Assembly (NCBI GenBank): GCA_000092065.1
Contig: CP000582.1
Origin: Ostreococcus lucimarinus
Lineage: Eukaryota
DNA: 64,000 nucleotides
Strand: one strand, 5' to 3'
The notes beneath the pieces were generated by a model that ran no database searches, was not told where the DNA came from, and saw only the letters and a program-made list of their open reading frames with translations. Shown here piece by piece: positions 1 through 52,881 of this stretch. The translations under genes and the position numbers were made by a program. Every line of letters starts with the position of its first letter. Position 1 is the stretch's first letter.

Positions 1-1090
1 TTTTCTTCGGATCAGTCTCACGTGCCATCGCAATAACGGCGGAACGACATTTTGATCTCCGACATGATGATCTAGGGGTCGCGCGTAAGATATTGTGCGT
101 TGGTTGCCTACTTGCCAAAGAGTTCATCGCCGTCAATTATATGCCGCTTGAGATTTCTTTGTGGTAGGAGAAGTTGCCTGCGATTGCGAATGGGCGCATT
201 TCTAGAGTCAGTAATCGTGTGCATGTGCACACATCATCGCGGAGGAACGATAGTCCGCAATTTGCGTCGGCTTTGGTGCCTGGCGCACCGCACGTATGGA
301 GATAACGTTGACGAAGTGAAATAGATAAGGAAATAGTGATCCTCAGCGGATGACGCGACGCGCGTTTGCGGCACTCTGCAAACACACCGATCGATGGGCG
401 TACCTCAAGATCACACTGCCCGACGTTCCGGTCCGAACTCGAAGCGTTCAATTGCGGCGGACGTGAAAGCTTCACACTGAGGGTTTGTTCGGCCGACGTT
501 GGCGCGCGGCTCCATTTTTTCGGTTTTCATACTAGATTTAACCCACAGGATAGCGGAAACTCAAAACGCTCGAGTTGGATTGTTCATTGTGAAAAACATA
601 CCGCGTTACGTAAAAAAGAATTGGTTTCCCCTGTGATTTGATGATGACTACCGAGCTATCTGTAAACACGAAAGTAACTCGCCGTGCTTTCACTCCGCCC
701 AAGTCGCACCCAGCCGCGGTTGAAGCGCAAGTGGCACTGAGAGATATGCAGCTAAACTGTGTAGGCTCGATGAACTCGCGGTTGTCGGCCAATTTCAAAA
801 GTATCTGTCGACTCATCGAAGCTACAGCTAGTACGGGCCGCTCTTATTTCGTACGTATTCCCTTCACTCTCTGATAATTCTCAAGTCTTCGACGTAGACT
901 CATCCGCTCGATGCGGTTAGTGTATGCAAGGCTTCAAACGAACGTGCAAAGTCGAATTGGCACCGCTGCTCGCCCATAGCAAAGTGGTCAAACGCATTAA
1001 ATGGCTGGATAAGCGGACCGTCCACCAAGCTGAGTTCTCTACCGGGACGTGTTACCGACGTTAGTACTTTGCGCGATAGCACGTACGAAG

Positions 1091-2520
1091 CAGAATTTGT
1101 CCGCACGACACCGAGTTCTAATACTTATTCTCATACTGCGATCTTACCGGGAGTTCGAGGCGTACATCGCCCTAAATCGTATGGAGACAACTTCTCTGTG
1201 AACAGGAAAGGATATCCAATCTGGCCTTAAGTCTCCTGTAATATTGCAATTTTCATTGTACAAACTAGCTCTGCCGTCGTTCTAATCACTAAATTGAAGT
1301 TCACGCTTGCAGCTTCGTGTAAAAGTCGATTTCACGTTCGTAGGTATTTGCGTATTCGGATTCTCAAAGGTAGGCCCCTTGCCAGAGAGCCCCGTTATCT
1401 CTTGAATATTCGCCCAGTCGCCGCGCGTAAAGTTGTAGGTTTGCATCAAATTCAGGACGTCTGGTATACCATCTAGTTCTTTACCCCCTCGAGCTTGACT
1501 AAAAAGCGGACGAGTGAGCAACCGTTTTGTCAAAGAAGCGTACCAGAGGCAAAACTCAAGTTGAGTGCTGCAGCTCCTACCACTTGATCGAAAATGTTGA
1601 TACAACTCTGATAACAGCCGCTGCGATTTTGACTTTGACGACAACTTCCCCAAGAGACTTGGGAATCGATGAGTGTGGCGTTCAGCCTGACCAAATGTTT
1701 CTCTTGAGCCTCTGACGGCAGAGGTTGGCAGGACACATGAAACTATGTTCGCAGGAGGCATCATGGTCCAGTTTTGTGTCTTGTTTATTGTCGTCGCAAA
1801 CACATCTCCTTCTGCTACACGTGACGATGCCGCAGCAACGTGCACAATTCTTTGCAACTCGTTTGTACTGTCTCGCGGGCGCATACACGCATAGTTTTCT
1901 TGAACGAACAGAGGGATCATGTCTGAGTGCTGGAAAACCAGATTAAGCCTCTCATCGAGTGTTTTTAATGGGCTTGGACGAAAAAGAACATCTATTGCTT
2001 GAAAAACACTTGTGGCGACATCTTTTTTCGAAATTTCATTCCTTCCGTGATGCTTCGAGCTCATGCCCCATAGTTGTAGCTGGTTGATACTGGATCGAAG
2101 GTCATTGTTGTTTGCTTCTATGAGAGCATCAACTGCGTCGCTATCAACATCCAAGCGTTGTGAGGCTACAATTTGATTCAAGTACTTTCGGAGCTGGAGC
2201 TTATTTGGCCGTTGGAAAGGTAAATCGACACAATAGTTTGCAAGAGTCTTTAGTTTTTGTGAATATCGGTCGTTGCAGATGCATATGATGGGAATGCGCG
2301 TGTGTTTGATGACTTCTATCAACTCCGAGATACCACCCCGATCGCCACCAGCCATACCATCTACTTCATCCATGATCAGTGCAGTCTTTGTTGATCGCAA
2401 ACCATCAATACCGATGTTACGATTAGTTACAAACTCTCGAACAGTACTCGCCAATGTTCCCGCTATCCCATCACTTACTGCTCCAGTCTTACCTCTTGAA
2501 TCGCTTGCGTTTACGTTCAA
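1091..2520. repeat. Copy A of a 1.43-kb segmental duplication, identical to 3383..4812
   Basis: ORF-track pairs at a constant +2292 offset have identical translations (1294/3586, 1527/3819, 1530/3822, 1682/3974, 1725/4017, 2273/4565). Direct reading confirms identity from cagaatttgtccgcacgac through gcgtttacgttca. Divergence is sharp at both ends. Confidence 0.85.
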
Positions 2521-3141
2521 CGACGTGCACACGTCGTCGCCGAACAAATACCCCGCCCCTCGAGGGGAAAGCCCCCAGCCGGAGACGTCCTCGGGGTCGC
2601 TCCAAAGCAAATCGCACATCGCGCCTTCGTGCGGCACCTCTTGTTTACGATCGATCGTTCGAATCTGATCGATCGTCGTGATGCTCGGGGACAACCCCCC
2701 GTGCACGCAAAATATCTTGTTATCTATGAGCGCAGACAACGAAAGGTAATCGAACACATCCGTGCAATATCGCCACACGTTGACGCTCCCGTATTTGCGC
2801 AAACACTCGTCGTAAAACCCGTACACCTGCGTGATCTGTCGACACTCGTGATTCCCCCGAATGAGATACATTCGATCCGGGTACCTCACCTTCAGCGCCA
2901 GGAGCAACAAAAACGTCTCCACGCTGTAAAACCCGCGATCGACGAAGTCCCCCATGAACAAATAGTTTGTATCCGGGCAGTCGCCGCCGACTTTAAACAG
3001 TTCCAACAAATCGTAAAACTGCCCGTGAATGTCCCCGCATATCGTCATCGTTTGCTCGTTAATCCACCGCACGCGATCGAAATCGTCGCTCGAAAAGTCA
3101 CGCAGCGACGCCTTCGCGTCCCGCATCGCCGAACACATCAA
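1282..3141 (-). pseudogene. Chimeric in-frame ORF of 619 aa: a truncated PP2A/PP4-type catalytic core (about residues 25-230) fused to the RFC1 large-subunit region downstream of the P-loop, from the duplicated copy. Probably a non-functional chimera.
   Basis: The N-terminal 205 aa carry the PPP motifs GDIHGQ, GDFVDRG, GNHE, HGG and SPRGAGY but lack the C-terminal His and tail. The junction at 2520/2521 continues in-frame into [12 protein letters not shown], identical to residues 88-498 of the ORF at 3574..5070. The fragment lacks the Walker A motif GAPGIGKTT. Confidence 0.55.
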
Positions 3142-3350
3142 TGTTGAGCGAAATATCTAACGCGGTGACGCTGTGCGTGAGCGCACCGCTGGATATGTAC
3201 GTCACGCCTGTTTGGCCGATGGCGTGGACGGTGTCTAGGGTGACGTTACCCGACGCCTCGGTGTCGACTCTGCCGTCGATGAGACGCACGGCGGCGGTCA
3301 TGTCCTCCACGGACATGTTGTCGAGCATTAAACGAGTGACGCTGCCCGTC
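3098..3350 (-). pseudogene. C-terminal fragment, about 85 aa, of quinolinate phosphoribosyltransferase (NadC/QPRT). Truncated at its 5' side at the duplication boundary.
   Basis: [64 protein letters not shown] matches the conserved QPRT C-terminus (MLDN...EVSGN.TL......tGVD.IS.GALTHS...LD.S). No upstream QPRT sequence is present. It overlaps the PP2A-fragment reading frame by about 40 nt. Confidence 0.6.
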
Positions 3351-3382
3351 GGGACGTTCGGGTCGTGCAGAATTTGTTCGTG

Positions 3383-4812
3383 CAGAATTTGTCCGCACGA
3401 CACCGAGTTCTAATACTTATTCTCATACTGCGATCTTACCGGGAGTTCGAGGCGTACATCGCCCTAAATCGTATGGAGACAACTTCTCTGTGAACAGGAA
3501 AGGATATCCAATCTGGCCTTAAGTCTCCTGTAATATTGCAATTTTCATTGTACAAACTAGCTCTGCCGTCGTTCTAATCACTAAATTGAAGTTCACGCTT
3601 GCAGCTTCGTGTAAAAGTCGATTTCACGTTCGTAGGTATTTGCGTATTCGGATTCTCAAAGGTAGGCCCCTTGCCAGAGAGCCCCGTTATCTCTTGAATA
3701 TTCGCCCAGTCGCCGCGCGTAAAGTTGTAGGTTTGCATCAAATTCAGGACGTCTGGTATACCATCTAGTTCTTTACCCCCTCGAGCTTGACTAAAAAGCG
3801 GACGAGTGAGCAACCGTTTTGTCAAAGAAGCGTACCAGAGGCAAAACTCAAGTTGAGTGCTGCAGCTCCTACCACTTGATCGAAAATGTTGATACAACTC
3901 TGATAACAGCCGCTGCGATTTTGACTTTGACGACAACTTCCCCAAGAGACTTGGGAATCGATGAGTGTGGCGTTCAGCCTGACCAAATGTTTCTCTTGAG
4001 CCTCTGACGGCAGAGGTTGGCAGGACACATGAAACTATGTTCGCAGGAGGCATCATGGTCCAGTTTTGTGTCTTGTTTATTGTCGTCGCAAACACATCTC
4101 CTTCTGCTACACGTGACGATGCCGCAGCAACGTGCACAATTCTTTGCAACTCGTTTGTACTGTCTCGCGGGCGCATACACGCATAGTTTTCTTGAACGAA
4201 CAGAGGGATCATGTCTGAGTGCTGGAAAACCAGATTAAGCCTCTCATCGAGTGTTTTTAATGGGCTTGGACGAAAAAGAACATCTATTGCTTGAAAAACA
4301 CTTGTGGCGACATCTTTTTTCGAAATTTCATTCCTTCCGTGATGCTTCGAGCTCATGCCCCATAGTTGTAGCTGGTTGATACTGGATCGAAGGTCATTGT
4401 TGTTTGCTTCTATGAGAGCATCAACTGCGTCGCTATCAACATCCAAGCGTTGTGAGGCTACAATTTGATTCAAGTACTTTCGGAGCTGGAGCTTATTTGG
4501 CCGTTGGAAAGGTAAATCGACACAATAGTTTGCAAGAGTCTTTAGTTTTTGTGAATATCGGTCGTTGCAGATGCATATGATGGGAATGCGCGTGTGTTTG
4601 ATGACTTCTATCAACTCCGAGATACCACCCCGATCGCCACCAGCCATACCATCTACTTCATCCATGATCAGTGCAGTCTTTGTTGATCGCAAACCATCAA
4701 TACCGATGTTACGATTAGTTACAAACTCTCGAACAGTACTCGCCAATGTTCCCGCTATCCCATCACTTACTGCTCCAGTCTTACCTCTTGAATCGCTTGC
4801 GTTTACGTTCAT
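3383..4812. repeat. Copy B of the 1.43-kb segmental duplication. It lies inside the intact RFC1-like gene and includes about 190 bp of its 3' flank.
   Basis: Same as copy A. Copy B is embedded in a complete 498-aa RFC1-like ORF, so it is the likely parental copy. Confidence 0.85.
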
Positions 4813-19682: not shown

Positions 19683-20582
19683 TCATTCACGTTCTCTCGC
19701 GGCGCGTTTCGACTCGACGCGACGACGCACGTACGCCGTGCGCGTTCTTCGCCGTTCATTCAACTTGACTTCGCTCGGACGTTTCTTTTCAGGCGCCCGA
19801 GCTCGCGAGACGAGCGACGAGACCCACGCCCCGTCCTCGCGTTCGAAACCGCGCGTTTCATTTTCATCGACGAAGGCGCGCCGACCGTCGTCGTCGACCA
19901 ATCTAAAGTGCAAGCACTCGCCCGGCTCAAACGGAAACACGAGATAATCCTTCCCGCACCCCCCCGGCGCGCGATCATCGCACCAGGACCACCCATCGCA
20001 CCGCCCGTCGTCCTCGCACGCCCCGCAGCACGCCGCCGCGGTCGCCGCCGCCCGCGCGCGAATCCTCCGCGCCCCTCGCTCGCGTTCGCCGTCCATCGGC
20101 GTCTCCGATCGAAACGCCCGTCCCTCGTCCTCGCACCTCTCCCTCGACCACTCCCGCAGCGCCTCGTCCAATTCCCCTCGCGCGCCGTCCCTAAAAAACG
20201 TCGGCGCGCATCCCATCGCGCGCGCCAGCGCGCTCGCTCGGATCGTCGCGTTCTCGACGGCGCCCATCGCCGCGAGCGCGCACGCGCGCGCCTCCGCGCC
20301 GCTCGCGTCGCTCGCCCCCTCGCCGTGCGCCTCCCAGAGCGACGCCGCGAGGCACGCGCCGCACGATCGCGTCGTCGCGCACGCGTCCGCGACGCGCGTC
20401 GCCGTCGCGTTCGCGCTCCCGGCGCGCGCGAACGCGCACCGACGCGTCGCCGCGCGCGCCGAACCGGGCACCGCGAGCGCCGTCATCATCATCGTCGCCA
20501 GCGCGCGTCGACGCGTCGCCCGGCGCGTCTCGGACGCGCGCGGCCGCGTCTCGAGCGCGCCTCGGCGCGCGTTCGCGCGCAT
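19683..20582 (-). CDS. Hypothetical Cys-rich protein with a signal- or transit-like N-terminus
   Basis: Diverse composition (W, C, F, Y, D, E), unlike the overlapping Arg-rich plus-strand ORF. Contains CEDDGRCDGWSWCDDRAPGGCGKDYLVFPFEPGECLHF. No family assigned. Confidence 0.3.
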   Translation of the reverse strand: MRANARRGALETRPRASETRRATRRRALATMMMTALAVPGSARAATRRCAFARAGSANATATRVADACATTRSCGACLAASLWEAHGEGASDASGAEARACALAAMGAVENATIRASALARAMGCAPTFFRDGARGELDEALREWSRERCEDEGRAFRSETPMDGERERGARRIRARAAATAAACCGACEDDGRCDGWSWCDDRAPGGCGKDYLVFPFEPGECLHFRLVDDDGRRAFVDENETRGFEREDGAWVSSLVSRARAPEKKRPSEVKLNERRRTRTAYVRRRVESKRAARERE

Positions 20583-21379
20583 CGCCGGGTCCCTCGCGTC
20601 GCGCGCGACGCGCGGCGCGGCACAGTGCGGATGCGACGCCGACGCGACGACGAGGACGACGACGACGGCGCGCTCGCGCGCGCGATGGACGCCGCGCGGT
20701 GCGCGACGTCGACGACGACGCGCGAGCGGTGCGCGACGACGCGCGACGCCGCGGGCGCGGCGCGGCGGACGTGCGCGCGCGAGCGAATCGTCGAGCGGAA
20801 ATGTCCGGGACGGTGCGCGACGCGCGACGACGCGACGAGCGCGCGTTCGACGACGTCGAACGCGCGATGCGACGACGTCGAACGCGCGCTCGACCGCGAC
20901 GCGCGCGACGCGCGGCGTCGAACGCGGGACTGACGCGACGGGACGCGCGCAGCGCGCCGGAGACGCTCGAGCGAACGCGCGAGACGGTCGAGCGCGACGA
21001 CGACGACGCGGAAAACGCGATCGAACGCTCGAACGCGTGGTCGACGACGTGGTCGACGACGTCGTCGCTCGGCGGCGGGTTCGGCGACGGCGAGGATGGG
21101 ACGGCGGCGCGCGCGGCGGCGGCGGCGGCGCGAGCGCTCCTCGGGGGCGCGACGGAGCGCGATCGCGGGAAAGATTTCGGCGCGATCGAGCGCGGGATGC
21201 TCGACGCGTTCGTCGCGGGCGCGCGCGCGGTGGCGGCGGAGGTATCGCGCGCGGCGGACGCGCTGGAGACGAGAGGCGCGGACGACGCGGCGGACGGCGA
21301 GGACGACGCGAGGCGAATTCCGCCGCGCGCGTGAGCGCGGTCGAGCGCGCGCGCGACGACGCGACGCGGACGACGTGAA

Positions 21380-32716: not shown

Positions 32717-35239
32717 TCACACGATAAAGTATCTTCTCGCGAGGGGCAGCTCTTGCGCAGGCTGACTTTTCAACACGACACCGTCTGCTCGAACCTCATA
32801 TGTTTCTGGATCGACTTCTATCCTCGGGCACGCGTTATTCAAAACCATATCGTCTTTGCTAAGGCCTCTGCATTTGACCACAGCCTCGACGCGTTTATTG
32901 AGACCGTACTCGGCGCCAACATCCGCGGCGGCGGCCGCGGCGCTCACGAACGCTATGCAAGTCTTCCCCGGTTTGAGAGCACCGAACATTCCTCGCATGA
33001 TGACAGGCTCAGGAGTCGGAATACTTGCATTTGGATCACCCATCTGCGCCCACGCGATTTGTCCGCCTTTAACGACGATTTCTGGCTTGGCGCCGAAGAA
33101 AGCTGGCTTCCAAATGACGACGTCGGCGAATTTTCCCACTTCTAGGCTGCCGACCTTGTGCGACATGCCATGAGCTATGGCAGGATTGATGGTATACTTC
33201 GCTACATACCGTTTCACCCGAACGTTATCCGCACCCGAGTTTGCATCTTCTTCAAGAAAACCTCGTTGTTCTTTATTAGAGTGTGCGGTTTGCCACGTGC
33301 GGCGAATGACTTCTCCGACCCGTCCCATGGCTTGCGAGTCGCTCGCCATGATACTAAGCGCACCCATATCGTGAAGAACATCTTCGGCCGCGATAGTTTC
33401 TGCACGAATGCGTGATTCAGCAAACGCAACGTCTTCCGGGATCTCGGGATCGAGATGATGGCACACCATGAGCATATCCAGATGCTCGTCCACGGTATTT
33501 TTTGTGTATGGTCGTGTTGGGTTCGTGGATGAAGGAAGGACCATTTTTTCACCACAAACCTTGATGATATCCGGCGCATGGCCACCACCAGCACCTTCAG
33601 AGTGATACGTATGAATAGTGCGACCTTTGAAAGCCTCAATGGATTTTTCGACGCAGCATGATTCGTTGAGCGTATCCGTGTGAATGGTGACGGCGACGTC
33701 GTACTCTTCTGCAATGGTGAGACAGTTGTCGATCGCAGCCGGTGTTGTGCCCCAATCCTCGTGTAGTTTCATACCGACAGCACCAGCTTTTATGATTTCG
33801 TGCAAGCCTTCGGGCGACGCCGTGTTTCCCTTGCCAGTGAACGCGAAATTGAGTGGTAGCGCATCCGTCGTCTCAAGCATGAACTGCATGTGCGCAGCAG
33901 AGGGCGTACACGTGGTCGCGCACGTTCCCGACGCTGGTCCTGTACCGCCGCCAAGGAGGGTTGTGATGCCGCTAGCGACAGCCTCAGTGCACAGTTGCGG
34001 ACAAATGTAGTGAATGTGCGTGTCCAGTGCTCCCGCGGTGACGATACATCCTTCCGCGGCAATGGCTTCGGTATTCACGCCGACAACCATCCCAGGGGTC
34101 ACGTCAGCGACGTCTGGATTACCACCGTGACCTATACCAACGATGTGACCATCTTTAATGCCGATATCAGCCTTATAAATACCACTATGATCGACTATCA
34201 GTGCGTTCGTGATGATTGTGTCGAGAGAATCAGCGTCGCCGACACCCGCCTGCTGCGACATTCCCTCGCGAAGCGTCTTACCGCCGCCAAATTTGGATTC
34301 TTCACCTTTCATCGTCAAGTCGCGCTCGGGGGTGATGTAAAGGTTCGTATCTCCCAGTCGTACGCGATCACCGATTGTGGGTCCGTACATGTGCGCGTAC
34401 TTGTGTCTCGGAATCATCAACGGCTCACCTTCGCCCAAATCGTCAGCGTCGACGTGCCCGAAGCCGCCGTCGATCACCCGCTTCATGACTTCGTCCAACC
34501 GATCCGCGGTCGCGGGTCCATTCACCAAATTGTTCCCACCTTTGACCACCCGGTTACCAGCGATATTCACCATATTCACAGTTTTCGACTCTCCAGGCTC
34601 GAATCGCACCGCCGTGCCGCTCGGAATGGCCAAACGCGCTCCGTACGCTCGCCGGCGATCAAACGTCAGAAACCGATTCGCCTCGATGAGGTGAAAGTGG
34701 CTTCCCACTTGAATCGGTCGATCACACGTGTTCGTTACCTTCAGTTTTCGTTTCGGTCTTCCCGCCAGGAGCTCTAAAGAATCCTTCGACGTACGAACCT
34801 CCCCCGGCGCCGGTGTCTTCTCCTTTGTCGCCGGAGGAAACGCCTTCTCGCTCGGTTTCGGTAAAAACGATCCCAGCAGCGCGAGTTCGAGATCGACGTC
34901 ATCCGCACATATCGCATCGTGAATCGTGATCAACTTCGTCCCATCGTCGAACGTCGTCTCTATCTGCACGTCGCCCACGAGTTCCGGGACGCCGTCGAGC
35001 ACGTGTCGTCGTCCGAGCACGCGCTTTCCCAAATCCTGCACCTCCACCGACGTCAGCGCGCGCCGTTCCCCGTCCTTATCGAACTTTGGATCTCTCACGA
35101 GCTCGACGCACTGCATCGCGATCAACGCCACGGCCTCCGGGTGGTTCAAACGCATTCCACGCGCGAGTCTTCGCTGCGCCACGCGTCCCGCGGCGAAGAG
35201 AATGTTCAGTTTATCGATCTCACACGGCGTGAGACGCAT
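32717..35239 (-). CDS. URE: Urease, single-chain eukaryotic type (fused gamma-beta-alpha), 840 aa
   Basis: Starts [41 protein letters not shown] (gamma), then the beta and alpha domains with metal-centre motifs (HTHYICPQ, the MVCHHLD His pair, GGGHAPD). The ORF-track start at 35869 is a spurious upstream extension. The ATG was re-estimated at 35239 in ORF-track coordinates. Confidence 0.9.
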
Positions 35240-35485
35240 CGTTCGCGCGCCTTCTTTCGCCGACGACGCCGCGAGCTTTGATATGTTCGTCCGCGTTGGC
35301 GCCCGCGACCCGGCGACGCTTCCGCGCGCGAGAAAGTGCCGCGCGACGCGCGATGCGAAAAGCGCACTTTTCCGCGACCTTTCGCGACGCGTCACCGCGC
35401 GACGCCCCTGGGCGCTTCGACGGCCCGCGCGCGCGACGGCGGCGCGACGGTGGCTCAAAAATCGATCGCGCGACGGCTCGGCGCG

Positions 35486-36286
35486 ATGTCCGGCGACGCG
35501 CACGCGCACGCGCACTCGCACGGGAGCGATGAGGTGGAATTCGGCGAATTGCACGCGCACGACGGCTTGAAGCCGCACCGACACGAGCGGTTGTACGGAC
35601 CGGGATCGTTCGCGAAGCGCCGGAAGGGCGCGAAAGTTCGAGCGCAAACGTTCGCCGATCGCGCGTACACGGTCGGGATCGGAGGACCCGTGGGCACGGG
35701 GAAGACGGCGCTGACGCTGGCGCTGTGTCGAGCGCTGCGGGACGCGTACGACGTCACGGCGGTGACGAACGACATCTTCACCAGGGAGGATGGAGAGTTT
35801 TTGATCGCGAACGATGCGTTGGGAGATGCGAATCGCATTCGAGCGGTTGAGACGGGAGGGTGCCCGCACGCGGCGATCCGGGAGGATATATCGAGTAATC
35901 TGAACGCCGTCGAAGACCTCACGGCGGCGTATCCGGATTGCGATTTATGTTTGATGGAGAGCGGCGGCGATAATTTAGCGGCGAATTATTCGCGCGAGCT
36001 CGCGGATTACATCGTGTACGTCATCGATGTGTGTGGCGGGGATAAGATTCCGCGAAAAGGTGGACCAGGGGTGACGCAGGCGGATTTATTAGTCGTCAAC
36101 AAGTGCGAGCTCGCCGACGCCGTCGGCGCGTCGCTCGAAGTCATGGAACGCGACGCCAAGATCCAGCGCGAGGACGGCCCGGTGGTCATGGCGCAGGTCA
36201 AGAAAGGCGTCGGCGTGCGAGAGATCGCTCAGCACATCCTCGACGATTGGGCCGCGCAGACCGGGCGCGAGAAGAAACCGTTCTAG
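35486..36286 (+). CDS. UREG: Urease accessory GTPase UreG with a His-rich N-terminus
   Basis: [16 protein letters not shown] (His-rich, plant-like), P-loop [30 protein letters not shown]. Divergent from urease with about 245 bp between the start codons. Confidence 0.9.
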
Positions 36287-47266: not shown

Positions 47267-50200
47267 TCACGGTGAGCCCGAGCCCCCGGACGTTCGCTTG
47301 CGCGCCTCGCGCGCTCTCTTGATGGCCTCCTCTAGAGCGCTCATGTCCGTGACGGACGTCGAGCGGTTCACCGCGCCCACGCGTCGCATGGGCACGCCGC
47401 CGTCTTCCTCGGAGATAAGATCCGATCTCGACGGCGATCGTCCGAATGCATTGCGCGAGAATGGGATGTCGCGAATGTCGCGTTCACCCTCGGCGTTCGT
47501 TCGATACGACGGGCCCGACAAGTTGCTGACGCTACTCGATCGCGGTAGGCCCACCGAGCTCGATCGCTGTAAGTTCGAACCAGCTTTTGCACTGTTCGGC
47601 TCGGACGCGCCGTTGGCTTGCGGTCGCTGAGTGAACATATCGAAGAATTGCTGCCCGTAGGAGTCTCGTCGTCGCAATGAATTTTGCGTGTGGTATCGAG
47701 GCGAGTCCGGAATCGTCGAGCTTGGTCGCTCATCGAGCACTTGATCGTAAATTTCAATTGGGCTCTGCGCTTTCCAAGCCGGAAGCTCACCCTTGGTGGT
47801 CGACGCCGGCGCCGACGACGATAAACTCGATGCATCGGACATCCGACCCGTTCGTAACGGCGACAAGTAGGACGAAGGGTTCACCGGCGCGCGCGAATTC
47901 GCCGTCTCTGAAACCGCATCCATCGCAGCTTGCAACGCGCTCTTTCCTCGAGGGGGCGTCATCGGTGCCGTAGGCGTCGATGGACGCGAAGGCACGCCTT
48001 CACCGTCTCGGGTCTCTACCTTTGGTGACGGGGGCTGCGGCTGTTTCGCCGGCTCAGCAGAACTCGTTGCAGGCTCGTTCGATGTGAACGCGAACGGACT
48101 CTCCTTGCTCAGCGCCGCGACGGAAGCGGCATCTAAGCGATCGCTCGAAAACGAGACTGTGTTGTCCTTGCGCGCCGTCGGAATAACGACGGATGACTCC
48201 GAAATCGGCGGCGCCGCCGCCGCCTTGAGCGCAGCCGCAGAAGGCGCGGGCGTGACGAAAGCGGCCGGCGGCGGCGGTGGTGGCGTCGGCGGTTCAGACG
48301 TCTTCAACGTCTGTGGCAACGTCTTCGCCGACATCGCCTCCTTCGACGGCGTTGAGCCTTCTGGAATGAACGGCATCTTCACCCCGTTTACGAAGCCCGT
48401 CATTCCGATCACCTTTTCGCTCGTCTGCTCGAGGTCTCGCGAGTTGCTATTCATCAGCGCGCGCACGGGCAAATCGTACGGTCTGTTGCCAAACGGCTGC
48501 TCGATTTGCTCAGCCGCAGCCTCAATCCCGAACAGGGCGAGAGAAAGAATGGTGGTGACGGGGACGACGCCCCATACTCCGACTTCATGCACTAAAATCA
48601 TCGGTAACGAGCACACGTACACCATGAGCGTAGACTTCAAGTGGGTGATGATGCAACCCGGAGGCGGTTGGTTGACGACTTTTTCGCAACTCCCGTAGTT
48701 ATCCATGATCATCGCCACCTCGCTGTGGATCGTGCTCGCGATGGCGGGAGGGACGTAACCTTTGTTGAATGCTTCTTGGACGCAGCCGCGAATCTTTTCG
48801 AGGCAGTACAACACCTTATTCTCGGCGAGAAATAATCCTTCCAAGTCTCCCGCGTCAAGCGGTGTGGTGAGCTGACTCAAAATCGCTCCGTCGTTCAGCA
48901 CTGTACCATTCAATCGATCAGCCACGGTTTCTTTCAAAGCACCAATCAGACCCAGCGTTCGCGCGGCGAGTATCGGGTCGTCCGGCGCGACCCACGTGCA
49001 GAACGTGCCGCCAAGATTTTTGCAGTAAAACAAAATGTTTCCGAGACACGTGCGGCCGTACCACCAGCGCTCGTGCGCGTTGTTCCATCTAAAGACTAAC
49101 ATGAAACCCATGGGGAGGCCCAGGACGCCGTGCATGAAGGGTGAGAGCTTGAACATGTTCGCACCGAGACGAACCTTGGCGAAAGCCACGGCACACGCGC
49201 ACGTTGTGCTCAACAACGTCGGCTGCACAGGACCGAGTTCACGATTGATCACCCAGCGAGGGTTACGACCGAACACAGAGCTAAACAATCCATTATCGCT
49301 AAACTCGAGAGGATTCTCGGGGTAAAGTAGCAGCGAAGCTAAGAATAAACCGGTACCCATGACGGAGAACAAAACGAGTCGCGTCGTCTTGCTCGGGTCG
49401 CGCGTGATCCAAATATTGAGCAACCTTTGCATGATGCGAACAATCTCGCGCTCGGTTTCTTCCCACGCGAGTTTGTACCAGGGATCGGGAAGCACGACCT
49501 CGTCGTCGTCATCTTCCTCTTCGTCCTCGTCGTCTCCGTCATTCTTATCGTCTCCTCCTCCTCCTCCCCCGCCGCCGCCGGACCGCGCGTCGTCGCCATC
49601 ATCGCCACCGCCCACGCCCGCTAACACGGGATCAGCACCAGATTCTGCGGCCATTCCCGCCGCGGACCTTATCGCGCCTCCGCTCACCACCGGCGCGCTC
49701 TTCGGCGTCGCCAGCTTCTTCTCCCCCGTCTCCTTCTCTCCGTCAGTTTTCGGTTTCGTCTTCGTCGTCGCGCCTCCCTTCGTCGCGCTTCCGCTCGGTC
49801 CTTTCCCATCACCGTCTGCGGCGTCCCCCCCTTCCTTATCTCCACCGTCTTCTTTGTACTCTTTCCCTCTCGGTTCCCGCTTCGACGGCGGCAACAGTTC
49901 TTCCTCGCTCAACACCGGCCGCGTCGTCGACTCCGCGCGCGCGGGCGTCGATTTCGTCGGCTCATCCCGCGCCACCGCCGGCGTCTGCGCCACCGGTCCC
50001 GTGCCCACGATCGCCGTCGTGTTCGCGCGCCGCTTTTCGATGGCGTACGAGTCGTTCGGCTTGGAGGCGCCGCTGACGACGCCGGCGCCGTCGTCGCCGT
50101 CGCACGGCTCCACCATCGCGTCGCTCGCGCGCGGCGCCGGCGCCGCGTCGTCGACGGCATCGGAACGAATCGCCTCGCTCGACGATCGCGCGTCGTCGTC

Positions 50201-50389
50201 GTCGCTCGAGAGCGCGCGCGGCGGCGTGATTTGCACACCTCGTGGAATCGCGACACGGCGAACGAAAACGCGCGCGCGCGGGCTCGCGTGACGCGCGATG
50301 CGAGCGGCGCGCGGTGGAACGCGCCGTGGAACGCGCGCCGAAGCGCTCGACGCGCTCGACGCGCGAACGGTAGGCGCGAGGCGCAGCAT
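47267..50389 (-). CDS. Bestrophin-like (UPF0187/VCCN-type) anion channel homologue with long low-complexity N- and C-terminal tails
   Basis: Core RWNNAHERWWYGRTCLGNILFY..., several TM helices, and the family motif PFGNRPYDLPV. Flanked by a Gly/Asp/Glu-rich region and a Ser/Pro/Ala-rich C-tail. The start is uncertain. The ORF runs to 50638, but MLRLAPTV at about 50389 looks like a transit peptide and leaves room for the neighbour's 3'UTR. Confidence 0.6.
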   Translation of the reverse strand: MLRLAPTVRASSASSASARVPRRVPPRAARIARHASPRARVFVRRVAIPRGVQITPPRALSSDDDDARSSSEAIRSDAVDDAAPAPRASDAMVEPCDGDDGAGVVSGASKPNDSYAIEKRRANTTAIVGTGPVAQTPAVARDEPTKSTPARAESTTRPVLSEEELLPPSKREPRGKEYKEDGGDKEGGDAADGDGKGPSGSATKGGATTKTKPKTDGEKETGEKKLATPKSAPVVSGGAIRSAAGMAAESGADPVLAGVGGGDDGDDARSGGGGGGGGGDDKNDGDDEDEEEDDDDEVVLPDPWYKLAWEETEREIVRIMQRLLNIWITRDPSKTTRLVLFSVMGTGLFLASLLLYPENPLEFSDNGLFSSVFGRNPRWVINRELGPVQPTLLSTTCACAVAFAKVRLGANMFKLSPFMHGVLGLPMGFMLVFRWNNAHERWWYGRTCLGNILFYCKNLGGTFCTWVAPDDPILAARTLGLIGALKETVADRLNGTVLNDGAILSQLTTPLDAGDLEGLFLAENKVLYCLEKIRGCVQEAFNKGYVPPAIASTIHSEVAMIMDNYGSCEKVVNQPPPGCIITHLKSTLMVYVCSLPMILVHEVGVWGVVPVTTILSLALFGIEAAAEQIEQPFGNRPYDLPVRALMNSNSRDLEQTSEKVIGMTGFVNGVKMPFIPEGSTPSKEAMSAKTLPQTLKTSEPPTPPPPPPAAFVTPAPSAAALKAAAAPPISESSVVIPTARKDNTVSFSSDRLDAASVAALSKESPFAFTSNEPATSSAEPAKQPQPPSPKVETRDGEGVPSRPSTPTAPMTPPRGKSALQAAMDAVSETANSRAPVNPSSYLSPLRTGRMSDASSLSSSAPASTTKGELPAWKAQSPIEIYDQVLDERPSSTIPDSPRYHTQNSLRRRDSYGQQFFDMFTQRPQANGASEPNSAKAGSNLQRSSSVGLPRSSSVSNLSGPSYRTNAEGERDIRDIPFSRNAFGRSPSRSDLISEEDGGVPMRRVGAVNRSTSVTDMSALEEAIKRAREARKRTSGGSGSP

Positions 50390-50671
50390 GATGCGCGCGA
50401 GTCGCGGTCTGGGGACGCGCGCGCGAGAGCGCGGCGGCGCGCTCGACGACGTTCGAGCGACGCGCGCGGTGAAGCGCGAGACGGGGTGTACAGATGGTGC
50501 GCGATGGTATTGAATCGAGAGCGACGCGCGCTGGAGCGGCGATGGGACGACGGATGGAATCGCGTCGCGCTCGCCGAGAACCGCTTCGGTTCGTCGGTTT
50601 GAGAACGCGTCGGTCATAATTTTCCGTCGTCCTCTCATCGTCGTCGAAGCCGTCGTCGTCGTAAACTAAGG

Positions 50672-51391
50672 CTAAAGTTCATCTCGAATGTCTCGCGCGA
50701 TCGCCTGGGCGTCCATCTTCGGCGGATACCGACGAACCACGCGCCCGCGATCGTCTACTAAAAATTTCGCAAAATTCCACTCCGCCGGCGCGCCGCCCGC
50801 GGTGAGCTGCGCGAACATCGGATTGTGCGCCAAATCCAGCGCGGGTTCGAATAACACATCCATGACGTCCGCGAAATCGCGTTTGATTTCCTCATTCGTT
50901 CCTTGCTGATGTCCGAAGTCGTCGCTCGGAAATCCCAATATGCGCAACCCGTCGCCGAATTCTTCGCGAAGCGCGCGAAAGCCCTCGACGTTGGATTGCT
51001 TGTATCCTCAGTGCGATGCGACGTTGGTGACGAGCGTGAACGCGCCTCGCGAAGACTCGCGTTTGGCGACTGGAAATCCCAGGAGCGCTTCGTCGCGCAC
51101 GACGCCGCCGTCGATGTCGTGAAGCACGCCGCTCAACACCGCTTCAAAAACCCCCAGCGCGTCTCGCGCCGCCAGCGCGTCCGCGGAGACGAACGACGCG
51201 GTTTGCAGCGCGCGCGCGTGCGCGCGAGCGTCCGTGAACGGGCGCACGACGACGTGAAGGAAGAAACCACCCAGAACGGTGGTTAGAAGAATCAAAACGA
51301 GTGGGCCGTGACGCGCGCGATTCGCGCGCGCCGTTCCGGGATAGGCGGCGGCGAACGGCGCGGTGCCGCTTGATTCGACGTCCGGAGGCAT
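50672..51391 (-). CDS. GPX: Membrane-anchored glutathione peroxidase with an in-frame TGA at 51008..51010 at the catalytic position, a putative selenocysteine
   Basis: ORFs 51008..51391 and 50672..50947 share one frame. The join reads ...GAFTLVTNVASH-[TGA]-GYKQSNVEGFRALREEFGDGLRILGFPSDDFGHQQGTNEEI...WNFAKFLVDDRGRVVRRY, colinear with GPX (NVAS.[C/U]G, FPCNQFG.QEPG, W.NF.KFLV). The N-terminus has a TM anchor. Confidence 0.75.
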
Positions 51392-51465
51392 GGCGACGCG
51401 CGACGCGCGAGAGCGCGGCGTCGCGATGTGGCGCGGTCTACTTATGGTACACTTGCGTTACACAG

Positions 51466-52881
51466 CTACAGGCTCCGACCCGCCTTTGCGGACGCGAGCT
51501 GACCTTCCCAGTTGTTTCTAAATTTCCTATAAATCGCGAGCGCGGCCAAGGCGTCTTCGGCGGGATCGTGAGCATCTCCACACTGAATGCTTAGCGCGCA
51601 AAAGTCACGCGCCAGATGCCGCAAGCGACGAGGCTTGCGGAAGTGCGGCGGACGCAACAGCGGCCGCCATTTCGCGGTATCTCGCGTGTCTTCCCGTGGA
51701 TGGTGGAGCTGTAAAGCCGAAAAGTCGTTCTCCAGGGCGTGGCCGACGACGATGCGACCTTTTATGAGTTCAGCAACGTCGCGCTTGACGTCGGCGAATT
51801 CGCGCGCGCTCGACCCTTCGACGTGACGAGGAAGGATGCCGGAGACGTGCGTGCGATAGTCCGTGACTGTTTTGTACGCGCGTGAATAACTCAAATACAC
51901 TGTGTTTCCGTATTCGTTGATCACGCAGACCTGCGCGAGCATGGATTCCACGCCTCCTTCGCCGACGCCGACCATCTCGCAATCGAGCGCCAACACGTCG
52001 GTGACGGAGCAATCGTCGCTGAATGGCCTCGGTCGTTCGAGTTTGGTGCGATTCTCTAACCGTTGCACGTTTTCGTAAACGTCCCTGTGCGACTTTTTCC
52101 GCGCCTCACTCACGCCCGTGCCATCCAAACATCCGTTTCCGAACGGGTCTTCGCGCGCCGTGTAAAATCGCGCGACTTCTGCGACGACTTCGCGTCTCCA
52201 AAGCGCCTTTAAAACGCGCGAAAAATTCTGAAAAAATCCAGCGCTCTCAAACGTTGCTCGCGGAATAAATCCCACCATCGACGCTTCTTCGCTCGCTCTC
52301 GAACCGACCAAAGCGAGCTGATCCGCGCGCGCGTTCGCCGTGTGCGCTCCGCCTTTATGCGCCGCCACCTTCGCGATCAAAGTCTTCTCCCGCCTCTTAC
52401 TCAGCACGAACGCCGTCAGCACCGTCACCGCGTTCACAGCGATTTCGTCCACGTCTCCCCTCGCTATTATCTCCACGCACTTGCACACGTATCGCGAATC
52501 CGACATCACCGCCAACTTTTCGTCTCTCGGATGTCGAACGAGCGCCGCGAAAACCGCGCACATCTCCACCGCGTTGATATCGCACGATTTCCTCGCGCAC
52601 GACCCCGCGAAATTCAAATGATGTCCAAACTTATACCACACGCCCACGCCGCTCGCCGCGCCGCTCGCGTCGACGCTTCCGTCGACGTAACACGCGTCGT
52701 CGCCCGCGCTCGCGCCCCGTCGACGCCCCACCCCTCCGCCTCCGCGCCCGCCGCTCGCGGACGCCCGCGCGTCGCACCGTCGAAACCGCATCGCGAACGC
52801 CGCGCGGACGCGCGGTATCGCGCGTCCGACGGCGCGACACGCGAAGAACTCGACGACGAACCAAAAGATGCGCAGTCGCAT
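51466..52881 (-). CDS. Fusion protein: RNase H (type 1) domain plus REX4/ISG20-like DEDDh 3'-5' exonuclease
   Basis: RNase H catalytic pattern CYVDGS (D), INAVEM (E), VMSDSRYV (D), AHKGGAHTANARADQLA (H..D). Exonuclease LALDCEMVG, IVVGHALENDFSAL, HDPAEDALAALAIY. The start is taken at MRLRIFWFVVEFF (52881). Upstream ORF sequence to 54006 is spurious. Confidence 0.6.
   Translation of the reverse strand: MRLRIFWFVVEFFACRAVGRAIPRVRAAFAMRFRRCDARASASGGRGGGGVGRRRGASAGDDACYVDGSVDASGAASGVGVWYKFGHHLNFAGSCARKSCDINAVEMCAVFAALVRHPRDEKLAVMSDSRYVCKCVEIIARGDVDEIAVNAVTVLTAFVLSKRREKTLIAKVAAHKGGAHTANARADQLALVGSRASEEASMVGFIPRATFESAGFFQNFSRVLKALWRREVVAEVARFYTAREDPFGNGCLDGTGVSEARKKSHRDVYENVQRLENRTKLERPRPFSDDCSVTDVLALDCEMVGVGEGGVESMLAQVCVINEYGNTVYLSYSRAYKTVTDYRTHVSGILPRHVEGSSAREFADVKRDVAELIKGRIVVGHALENDFSALQLHHPREDTRDTAKWRPLLRPPHFRKPRRLRHLARDFCALSIQCGDAHDPAEDALAALAIYRKFRNNWEGQLASAKAGRSL

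Follow-up and report, generated by a model that had tools for sequence, protein, structure and literature searches.

GpxE, a selenoprotein gene in Ostreococcus lucimarinus: an in-frame UGA at the catalytic position and a type-2 SECIS element in the 3' UTR

Introduction

In mammals, the gene for GPX4 (phospholipid hydroperoxide glutathione peroxidase) has a SECIS element in its 3' UTR, and GPX7 and GPX8 are glutathione peroxidases (GPx) that reside in the ER, GPX8 being anchored in the membrane at its N-terminus. Ostreococcus selenoproteomes, including five selenocysteine (Sec)-containing GPx genes, have been on record since 2007: the sections of that report used here give 29 selenoprotein genes for O. 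lucimarinus, five of them GPx (Lobanov et al. 2007, Genome Biol 8:R198, PMC2375036), and "O. lucimarinus GpxE" is an entry in its Additional data file 2. GpxE is thus already known, having been published as a selenoprotein in 2007 (PMC2375036). According to the same sections, Ostreococcus SECIS elements typically have long mini-stems, those of O. lucimarinus have a G before the core in all but one case, an ATGA-type element in a glutathione peroxidase gene, and 75Se is incorporated into a set of O. tauri proteins (PMC2375036). Moreover, the O. tauri "Glutathione peroxidase E" (ostta02g02735) has been quantified in a proteomic time series (PMC8834552).

Here we set beside these systems a minus-strand locus in a 64,000-nucleotide stretch of O. 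lucimarinus DNA (contig CP000582.1; hereafter the window), for which we show how the gene is built, where its UGA lies, that selection acts on both halves, that a conserved element of SECIS shape is present, and that the gene is the published one. Of five further window ORFs compared by exact sequence, four agree in full with RefSeq proteins of O. lucimarinus CCE9901, among them XP_001416232.1 (UreD) and XP_001416480.1 (trigger factor), and the fifth has a partial model on the same record. In our assessment it is very probable that the locus is the GpxE selenoprotein gene of Ostreococcus lucimarinus, with UGA 51010..51008 encoding the peroxidatic Sec and the SECIS at 50632..50545 driving recoding.

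Results

A single TGA interrupts a glutathione peroxidase at its catalytic residue

The features of the coding sequence, with the evidence for each, are as follows.

50672..51391, minus strand: complete GpxE coding sequence, 239 codons including Sec128, from ATG 51391..51389 to TAG 50674..50672; introns are not needed
51008..51010, minus strand: UGA very probably read as selenocysteine (U128); aligned with the Sec/Cys of GPX4 and kept in alignment A1 and in L020
51245..51301, minus strand: N-terminal hydrophobic segment, residues 31-49, with basic residues before it (Kyte-Doolittle; counterpart in L020)
50687..51058, minus strand: GPx catalytic domain (predicted thioredoxin fold), residues 112-235 (Pfam PF00255; PDB GPX4 alignments)
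50906..50908, minus strand: Gln162 (PDB GPX4 alignments)
50774..50779, minus strand: Trp205-Asn206 (PDB GPX4 alignments)

Translation of 51391..50672 on the minus strand yields 239 codons with one internal stop and no frameshifts. The mechanical ORF list divides this interval into two ORFs in the same frame, 51391..51008 (127 aa, with the C-terminal end ...TLVTNVASH) and 50947..50672 (91 aa, with a TTG start), which are separated by the TGA at 51010..51008 alone, in the context ...FTLVTNVASH-stop-GYKQSNVEGF.... The initial annotation had described this arrangement of two adjacent same-frame ORFs split by a single TGA, which the translation confirms, and had further proposed that the TGA lies exactly where GPx enzymes carry Cys or Sec, a placement that is borne out by both Pfam and the alignments to GPX4 structures. 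With Cys put in place of the internal stop for the Pfam search, GpxE matched GSHPx (PF00255) at 44.1 bits (cut-off 27, E 1.6e-11), and by this match it is a member of the glutathione peroxidase family. When all PDB chains were searched with phmmer, the best solved-structure matches were GPX4 chains and GPX4-derived designs (E down to 6e-18), with GPX7 and GPX8 as weaker matches. The sequence match to solved GPX4 covers residues 112-235 and places TNVASH-TGA-GY of GpxE on TNVASQ-C-GK of PDB GPX4 chains that themselves have Cys at the Sec position, FGHQQ on FGKQE and WNFAKF on WNFTKF. The catalytic tetrad is therefore complete in GpxE, as U128 (TGA), Q162, W205 and N206 fall on the GPX4 active-site residues, and because the alignments pair the TGA with the Cys at the GPX4 Sec position, we assign it to the redox-active (peroxidatic) residue U128.

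An N-terminal hydrophobic anchor had also been noted before, and the segment is real: residues 31-49 (LVLILLTTVLGGFFLHVVV) have a mean Kyte-Doolittle value of 2.55, and an equivalent segment (KD 2.23) is present in the O. tauri-type sequence L020 introduced below. It is a probable signal anchor. The product is predicted to be a membrane-anchored, GPx4-like selenoperoxidase of about 26 kDa, with either glutathione or thioredoxin as reductant. Mammalian GPX4 and GpxE have in common the short, monomer-type architecture, the Sec position and the Gln/Trp/Asn tetrad residues, but GpxE differs in having His rather than Gln before Sec, FPSDDF for FPCNQF, a shorter loop before the WNF motif and the N-terminal hydrophobic anchor. 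In this last respect the N-terminal anchor of GPX8 is analogous to the topology proposed for GpxE, an analogy and not orthology; GPX7 and GPX8 use Cys, whereas GpxE has Sec.

The gene matches published GpxE and has an orthologue in O. tauri

We compared the window protein with stretches of the published O. lucimarinus GpxE model (PMC2375036). Its N-terminus, MPPDVESSGTAPFAAAYPGTARANRARHGPLVLILLTTVLGGF, is identical to that of the window protein, and the numbering agrees throughout the stretches checked: EALLGFPVAKRESSRG.FTLVTNVASHUGYKQSNVEGF is numbered from 101 (E101 in the window), GHQQGT from 160 (G160) and AEWNFAKFLVDDRGRVVRRYPPKMDAQA.ARDIRDEL from 203 (A203, at the C-terminus). No difference was found in these stretches, the few mismatching letters looking like machine-reading errors. 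Over the stretches checked, the sequence comparison thus indicates that the window gene is the published O. lucimarinus GpxE.

The O. tauri GpxE (ostta02g02735) is the orthologue, with Sec in NVASHUGYK as in O. lucimarinus. It has diverged, with several substitutions past the Sec (GYKKANVDGFKRLHDEFGDR against GYKQSNVEGFRALREEFGDG in O. lucimarinus). With the published protein of O. tauri as query, we recovered one N-terminal fragment, L020, and no O. tauri SECIS; L020 is a 1060-bp contig that ends 124 nt past the TGA and in which both the TGA and the reading frame are kept. The 2007 O. tauri model, in the portion of the report compared, begins at an internal Met (MVDVD...; PMC2375036), whereas the frame of L020 extends further upstream: at 595..936 of this contig the ORF has 66 in-frame codons ahead of MVDVD..., including a hydrophobic anchor (VVVAIVLLCSVFFFWRLTG). 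Because of this in-frame extension with its anchor, the published O. tauri GpxE model may be N-terminally truncated.

The 3' UTR contains a canonical type-2 SECIS element

The fold of the region downstream of the coding sequence contains the following parts, all taken from the minimum free energy (MFE) structure; the element as a whole is delimited in addition by a unique pattern match and by conservation.

50545..50632, minus strand: type-2 SECIS element
50632..50623 with 50554..50545, minus strand: helix I (GGACGACGGA / TCCGTCGTCC)
50622..50618, minus strand: 5' loop AAATT
50617..50614, minus strand: core ATGA
50612..50603 with 50572..50563, minus strand: helix II, 10 positions with one A.A mismatch
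50600..50598, minus strand: unpaired AAA, beginning 13 nt past AUGA
50597..50587 with 50583..50574, minus strand: helix III (mini-stem, 10 bp), loop AAG
50561..50560, minus strand: 3' core GA

Whether a SECIS element exists here was a question that the initial annotation had left standing; fold, pattern scan and conservation answer it alike, and 50632..50545 is a canonical type-2 SECIS element. It begins 39 nt past the stop codon, with 393 nt between the UGA and the SECIS core. RNAfold gave an MFE of -45.9 kcal/mol for 50640..50540 (z -4.2), and none of 200 shuffles was as stable. The internal loop is symmetric (5 nt), with AUGA opposite GA and with C.C and U.U forming the rest of the non-Watson-Crick quartet, and helix III reads CCGA-c-GAACCG AAG CGGTTC TCGG (50597..50574). 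We also scanned both strands of the 64-kb window (128 kb) with a SECISearch-like pattern ([AG]TGAN, 10-13 nt, AA, NGA; at least 8/9 pairs in helix II and at least 7 bp in helix I), whose thresholds were set after the candidate had been seen, and obtained a single match, 50632..50545, compared with 0.1 per randomised window.

The element is the best-conserved block in the 3' UTR when the window is compared with two related sequences, L005 and L011: identity is 98% and 88%, respectively, over the SECIS, as against 76% and 50% over the 38 nt between stop codon and SECIS, and 89% and 82% in the intergenic DNA beyond it. L011 carries GTGA as its core, the form usual among Ostreococcus SECIS elements, in contrast to the ATGA of the window; in the same sequence, the helix I pair 50623/50554 changes from A-U to G-C, the A.A mismatch of helix II becomes A-U, one helix I pair is lost and the remaining changes are in loops. 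In the pair table 95.7% of cells are paired, versus 27-43% when the partners are slid. The covariation itself, one compensatory pair in three close sequences, carries no statistical weight, as 155 of 500 shuffles scored as high.

A cmscan of 49800..51500 (1.7 kb) and of the 141-nt slice 50520..50660 returned no match to Rfam SECIS_1 at E<=10, the only matches at this level being chance ones to miRNA and snoRNA families; the long mini-stem may account for the miss. It is with this mini-stem and the ATGA-type core that the element fits the published ATGA-type GPx SECIS, compared by description with the relevant section of the report (PMC2375036), and we infer that the two are the same.

Candidate ATGA elements had previously been pointed out in gacgATGAgaggacgacggAAAAttATGAcc. 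Of the two ATGA motifs quoted there, the second (50617..50614) proved to be the true core, and helix I takes its 5' strand from the 'ggacgacgga' that separates them. The first (50638..50635) did not hold as a SECIS core, since it lacks conservation, relatives having GACGAC or GACGCG at this site, and since no GA follows on a complementary 3' strand.

For the step from SECIS to protein we rely on established eukaryotic Sec decoding, from which the protein factors and the insertion of selenium at U128 are carried over. The AUGA/GA kink-turn core of this type-2 stem-loop would be bound by the SECIS-binding protein SBP2, which would recruit the Sec-specific elongation factor eEFSec with Sec-tRNA[Ser]Sec; because the SECIS-bound protein brings in eEFSec with its Sec-tRNA, UGA 51010..51008 would be decoded as Sec, with no termination.

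A stable hairpin after the UGA is out of register in the O. tauri type

Directly downstream of the UGA, beginning 2 nt past it, lies a 70-nt hairpin (51006..50937, minus strand; -30.5 kcal/mol, z -3.3). Among the O. lucimarinus-like lineages it has one substitution, at an unpaired position, against about three expected by a rough estimate, a count not significantly below the synonymous expectation. We considered this hairpin as a Sec redefinition element (SRE) and rejected the candidate: in the O. tauri-type sequence 11 of its 25 pairs are broken with no compensatory change, the covariation term is unfavourable, and a different stable structure (z -2.6) occupies the site. Since the hairpin is out of register in L020, an SRE role is unsupported, and that it acts as a lineage-specific redefinition element alongside the 3' UTR SECIS strikes us as improbable; if it did, it would raise recoding efficiency.

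The same hairpin is what could be adduced for reading the UGA through with no selenium at all, with a near-cognate Trp, Cys or Arg inserted under the influence of the downstream hairpin or context and not of a SECIS, as its stable structure starts only 2 nt past the UGA. However, the hairpin loses its register in the O. tauri type, where 11 of 25 pairs no longer form and none is compensated, and this speaks against such a reading, as do the presence of the canonical SECIS and, from the sections of the 2007 report used here, the documented Sec system and 75Se-labelled proteins of Ostreococcus (PMC2375036). We therefore regard selenium-free read-through as very unlikely and retain Sec decoding directed by the SECIS.

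The TGA is conserved and both halves are under purifying selection

We next consider whether the TGA could be a genuine stop, in which case the first product would be a membrane protein of 127 residues and the GPx sequence behind it a fragment, either dead or translated separately, as in a pseudogene or split gene. In agreement with such a reading, automatic gene callers give two genes, of 127 and 88-91 aa, and Rfam finds no SECIS. Yet in each of four lineages, those of the window, of the L005 type, of L011 and of L020, it is precisely the catalytic residue that the break hits, and L020 reads ...ITNVASH-TGA-GYKKANVDGF... in frame. In the diverged L005 type and in L011, whose N-terminal ORFs are 93% and 89% identical to that of the window over the matched stretch, the TGA is kept in alignment A1 although the codons beside it vary synonymously (GCA/GCG, TCG/TCA). 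By the Nei-Gojobori method, pN/pS among the three O. lucimarinus-like lineages is 0.26-0.31 over 95 codons before the TGA and 0.19-0.20 over 111 codons after it. Between the TGA and TTG 50947, where the downstream ORF could first start, lie 20 codons that hardly vary in the same alignment, which is at odds with a genuine stop, as is the low ratio of about 0.2 in the downstream half. With pN/pS, these near-invariant codons and the lack of frameshifts taken together, both halves behave as one coding sequence under purifying selection, and this speaks against either a pseudogene or a pair of genes. The conserved SECIS-shaped element downstream and the detection of the O. tauri orthologue as a protein (PMC8834552) point in the same direction, and termination at the TGA is in our view extremely unlikely. 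The earlier statement that conservation continues on both sides of the TGA, with no pseudogene break, is thus upheld by the ratios on either side and by the absence of frameshifts.

The exact 127-aa N-terminal ORF ending at the TGA is present in 1286 public assembly blocks, most of them from marine metagenomes, and its gene neighbours are constant across assemblies, with RNase H/RNase T on the upstream side and Bestrophin_2 on the downstream side. The initial annotation had raised two points that these sequences settle, the use of Sec or Cys by orthologues and a possible misread TGA: every orthologue has TGA at the Sec codon and none has TGC or TGT, and the assembly blocks together with the diverged lineages exclude a sequencing error. 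That the gene is in truth a Cys-GPx whose TGC or TGT was turned into TGA by sequencing or assembly, for which a single-base difference would suffice and no other support was found, can be dismissed as next to impossible in view of the identical TGA in 1286 blocks of independent assemblies, its retention in diverged lineages with differing neighbour codons and in the O. tauri type, and the U in the published GpxE model, as given in the stretches compared (PMC2375036). The original proposal of a Sec-containing glutathione peroxidase split by a UGA is hence supported by the site of the TGA, by selection, by the SECIS and by publication of the gene as GpxE.

Our search of metagenomes for diverged orthologues returned near-identical loci only, plus one GPx that is 32% identical to GpxE and is located at 1201..1539 of a 73-kb metagenome contig (L019).

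Annotation pipelines split GpxE and mis-start the downstream bestrophin gene

The gene downstream of GpxE encodes a Bestrophin_2 protein, and its boundary with GpxE bears on the extent of the 3' UTR.

50390..50671, minus strand: GpxE 3' UTR plus intergenic spacer to the probable Bestrophin_2 start (indels; L007 gene call; Pfam)

In the mechanical ORF list the long ORF of the Bestrophin_2 gene (47267..50638, 1123 aa, minus strand; Pfam Bestrophin_2) passes through the SECIS, and metagenome gene callers take the ATG of the SECIS core as the bestrophin start (locus coordinate 3775, corresponding to window 50617). However, L007 and L011 have single-base indels in the interval from the SECIS to the ATG at 50389..50387, and because of them we consider this stretch non-coding. 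The gene call for bestrophin in L007 starts at ATG 50389..50387. Taking the non-coding stretch and this start together, the 282 nt at 50671..50390 comprise the GpxE 3' UTR plus spacer, and the real Bestrophin_2 start is probably ATG 50389..50387 (MLRLAPTVRAS...).

The upstream half of GpxE has likewise been mislabelled. The NCBI record MDA9599385.1, named 'hypothetical protein [bacterium]' and belonging to a MAG, is an N-terminal GpxE fragment, and the JGI name for such a fragment is 'uncharacterized membrane protein YeiH'; from these labels it follows that DNA of Ostreococcus was assigned to a bacterial bin and half of a selenoprotein misnamed. Pipelines thus still break GpxE up, calling one part "hypothetical protein" or "YeiH-like membrane protein" and the other, which is short, "glutathione peroxidase". 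The value of the case therefore lies in annotation, with a split gene and a mis-started bestrophin, and it brings nothing new for biology.

Other features of the window

The sole Rfam match above the gathering score in the window is 5_ureB_sRNA at 33982..34273 (plus strand, 70.1 bits), which lies antisense within a fused urease ORF (32717..35869, minus strand; Pfam Urease_gamma, beta, alpha and Amidohydro_1) and most likely reflects conservation of urease coding sequence, not an algal sRNA. The one tRNA that ARAGORN reported is a 97-nt 'tRNA-???' with an abnormal anticodon at 20513..20609 (minus strand), where the GC content is about 75%; Rfam gave no tRNA at 20513..20609 at the gathering score, and the prediction is probably a false positive. 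The Sec machinery (tRNA-Sec, SBP2, eEFSec, SPS and SecS) lies outside the window. Finally, positions 1..4000 of the window have a G+C content of about 49%, compared with 55-75% elsewhere in it, and are set off by a sharp compositional boundary.
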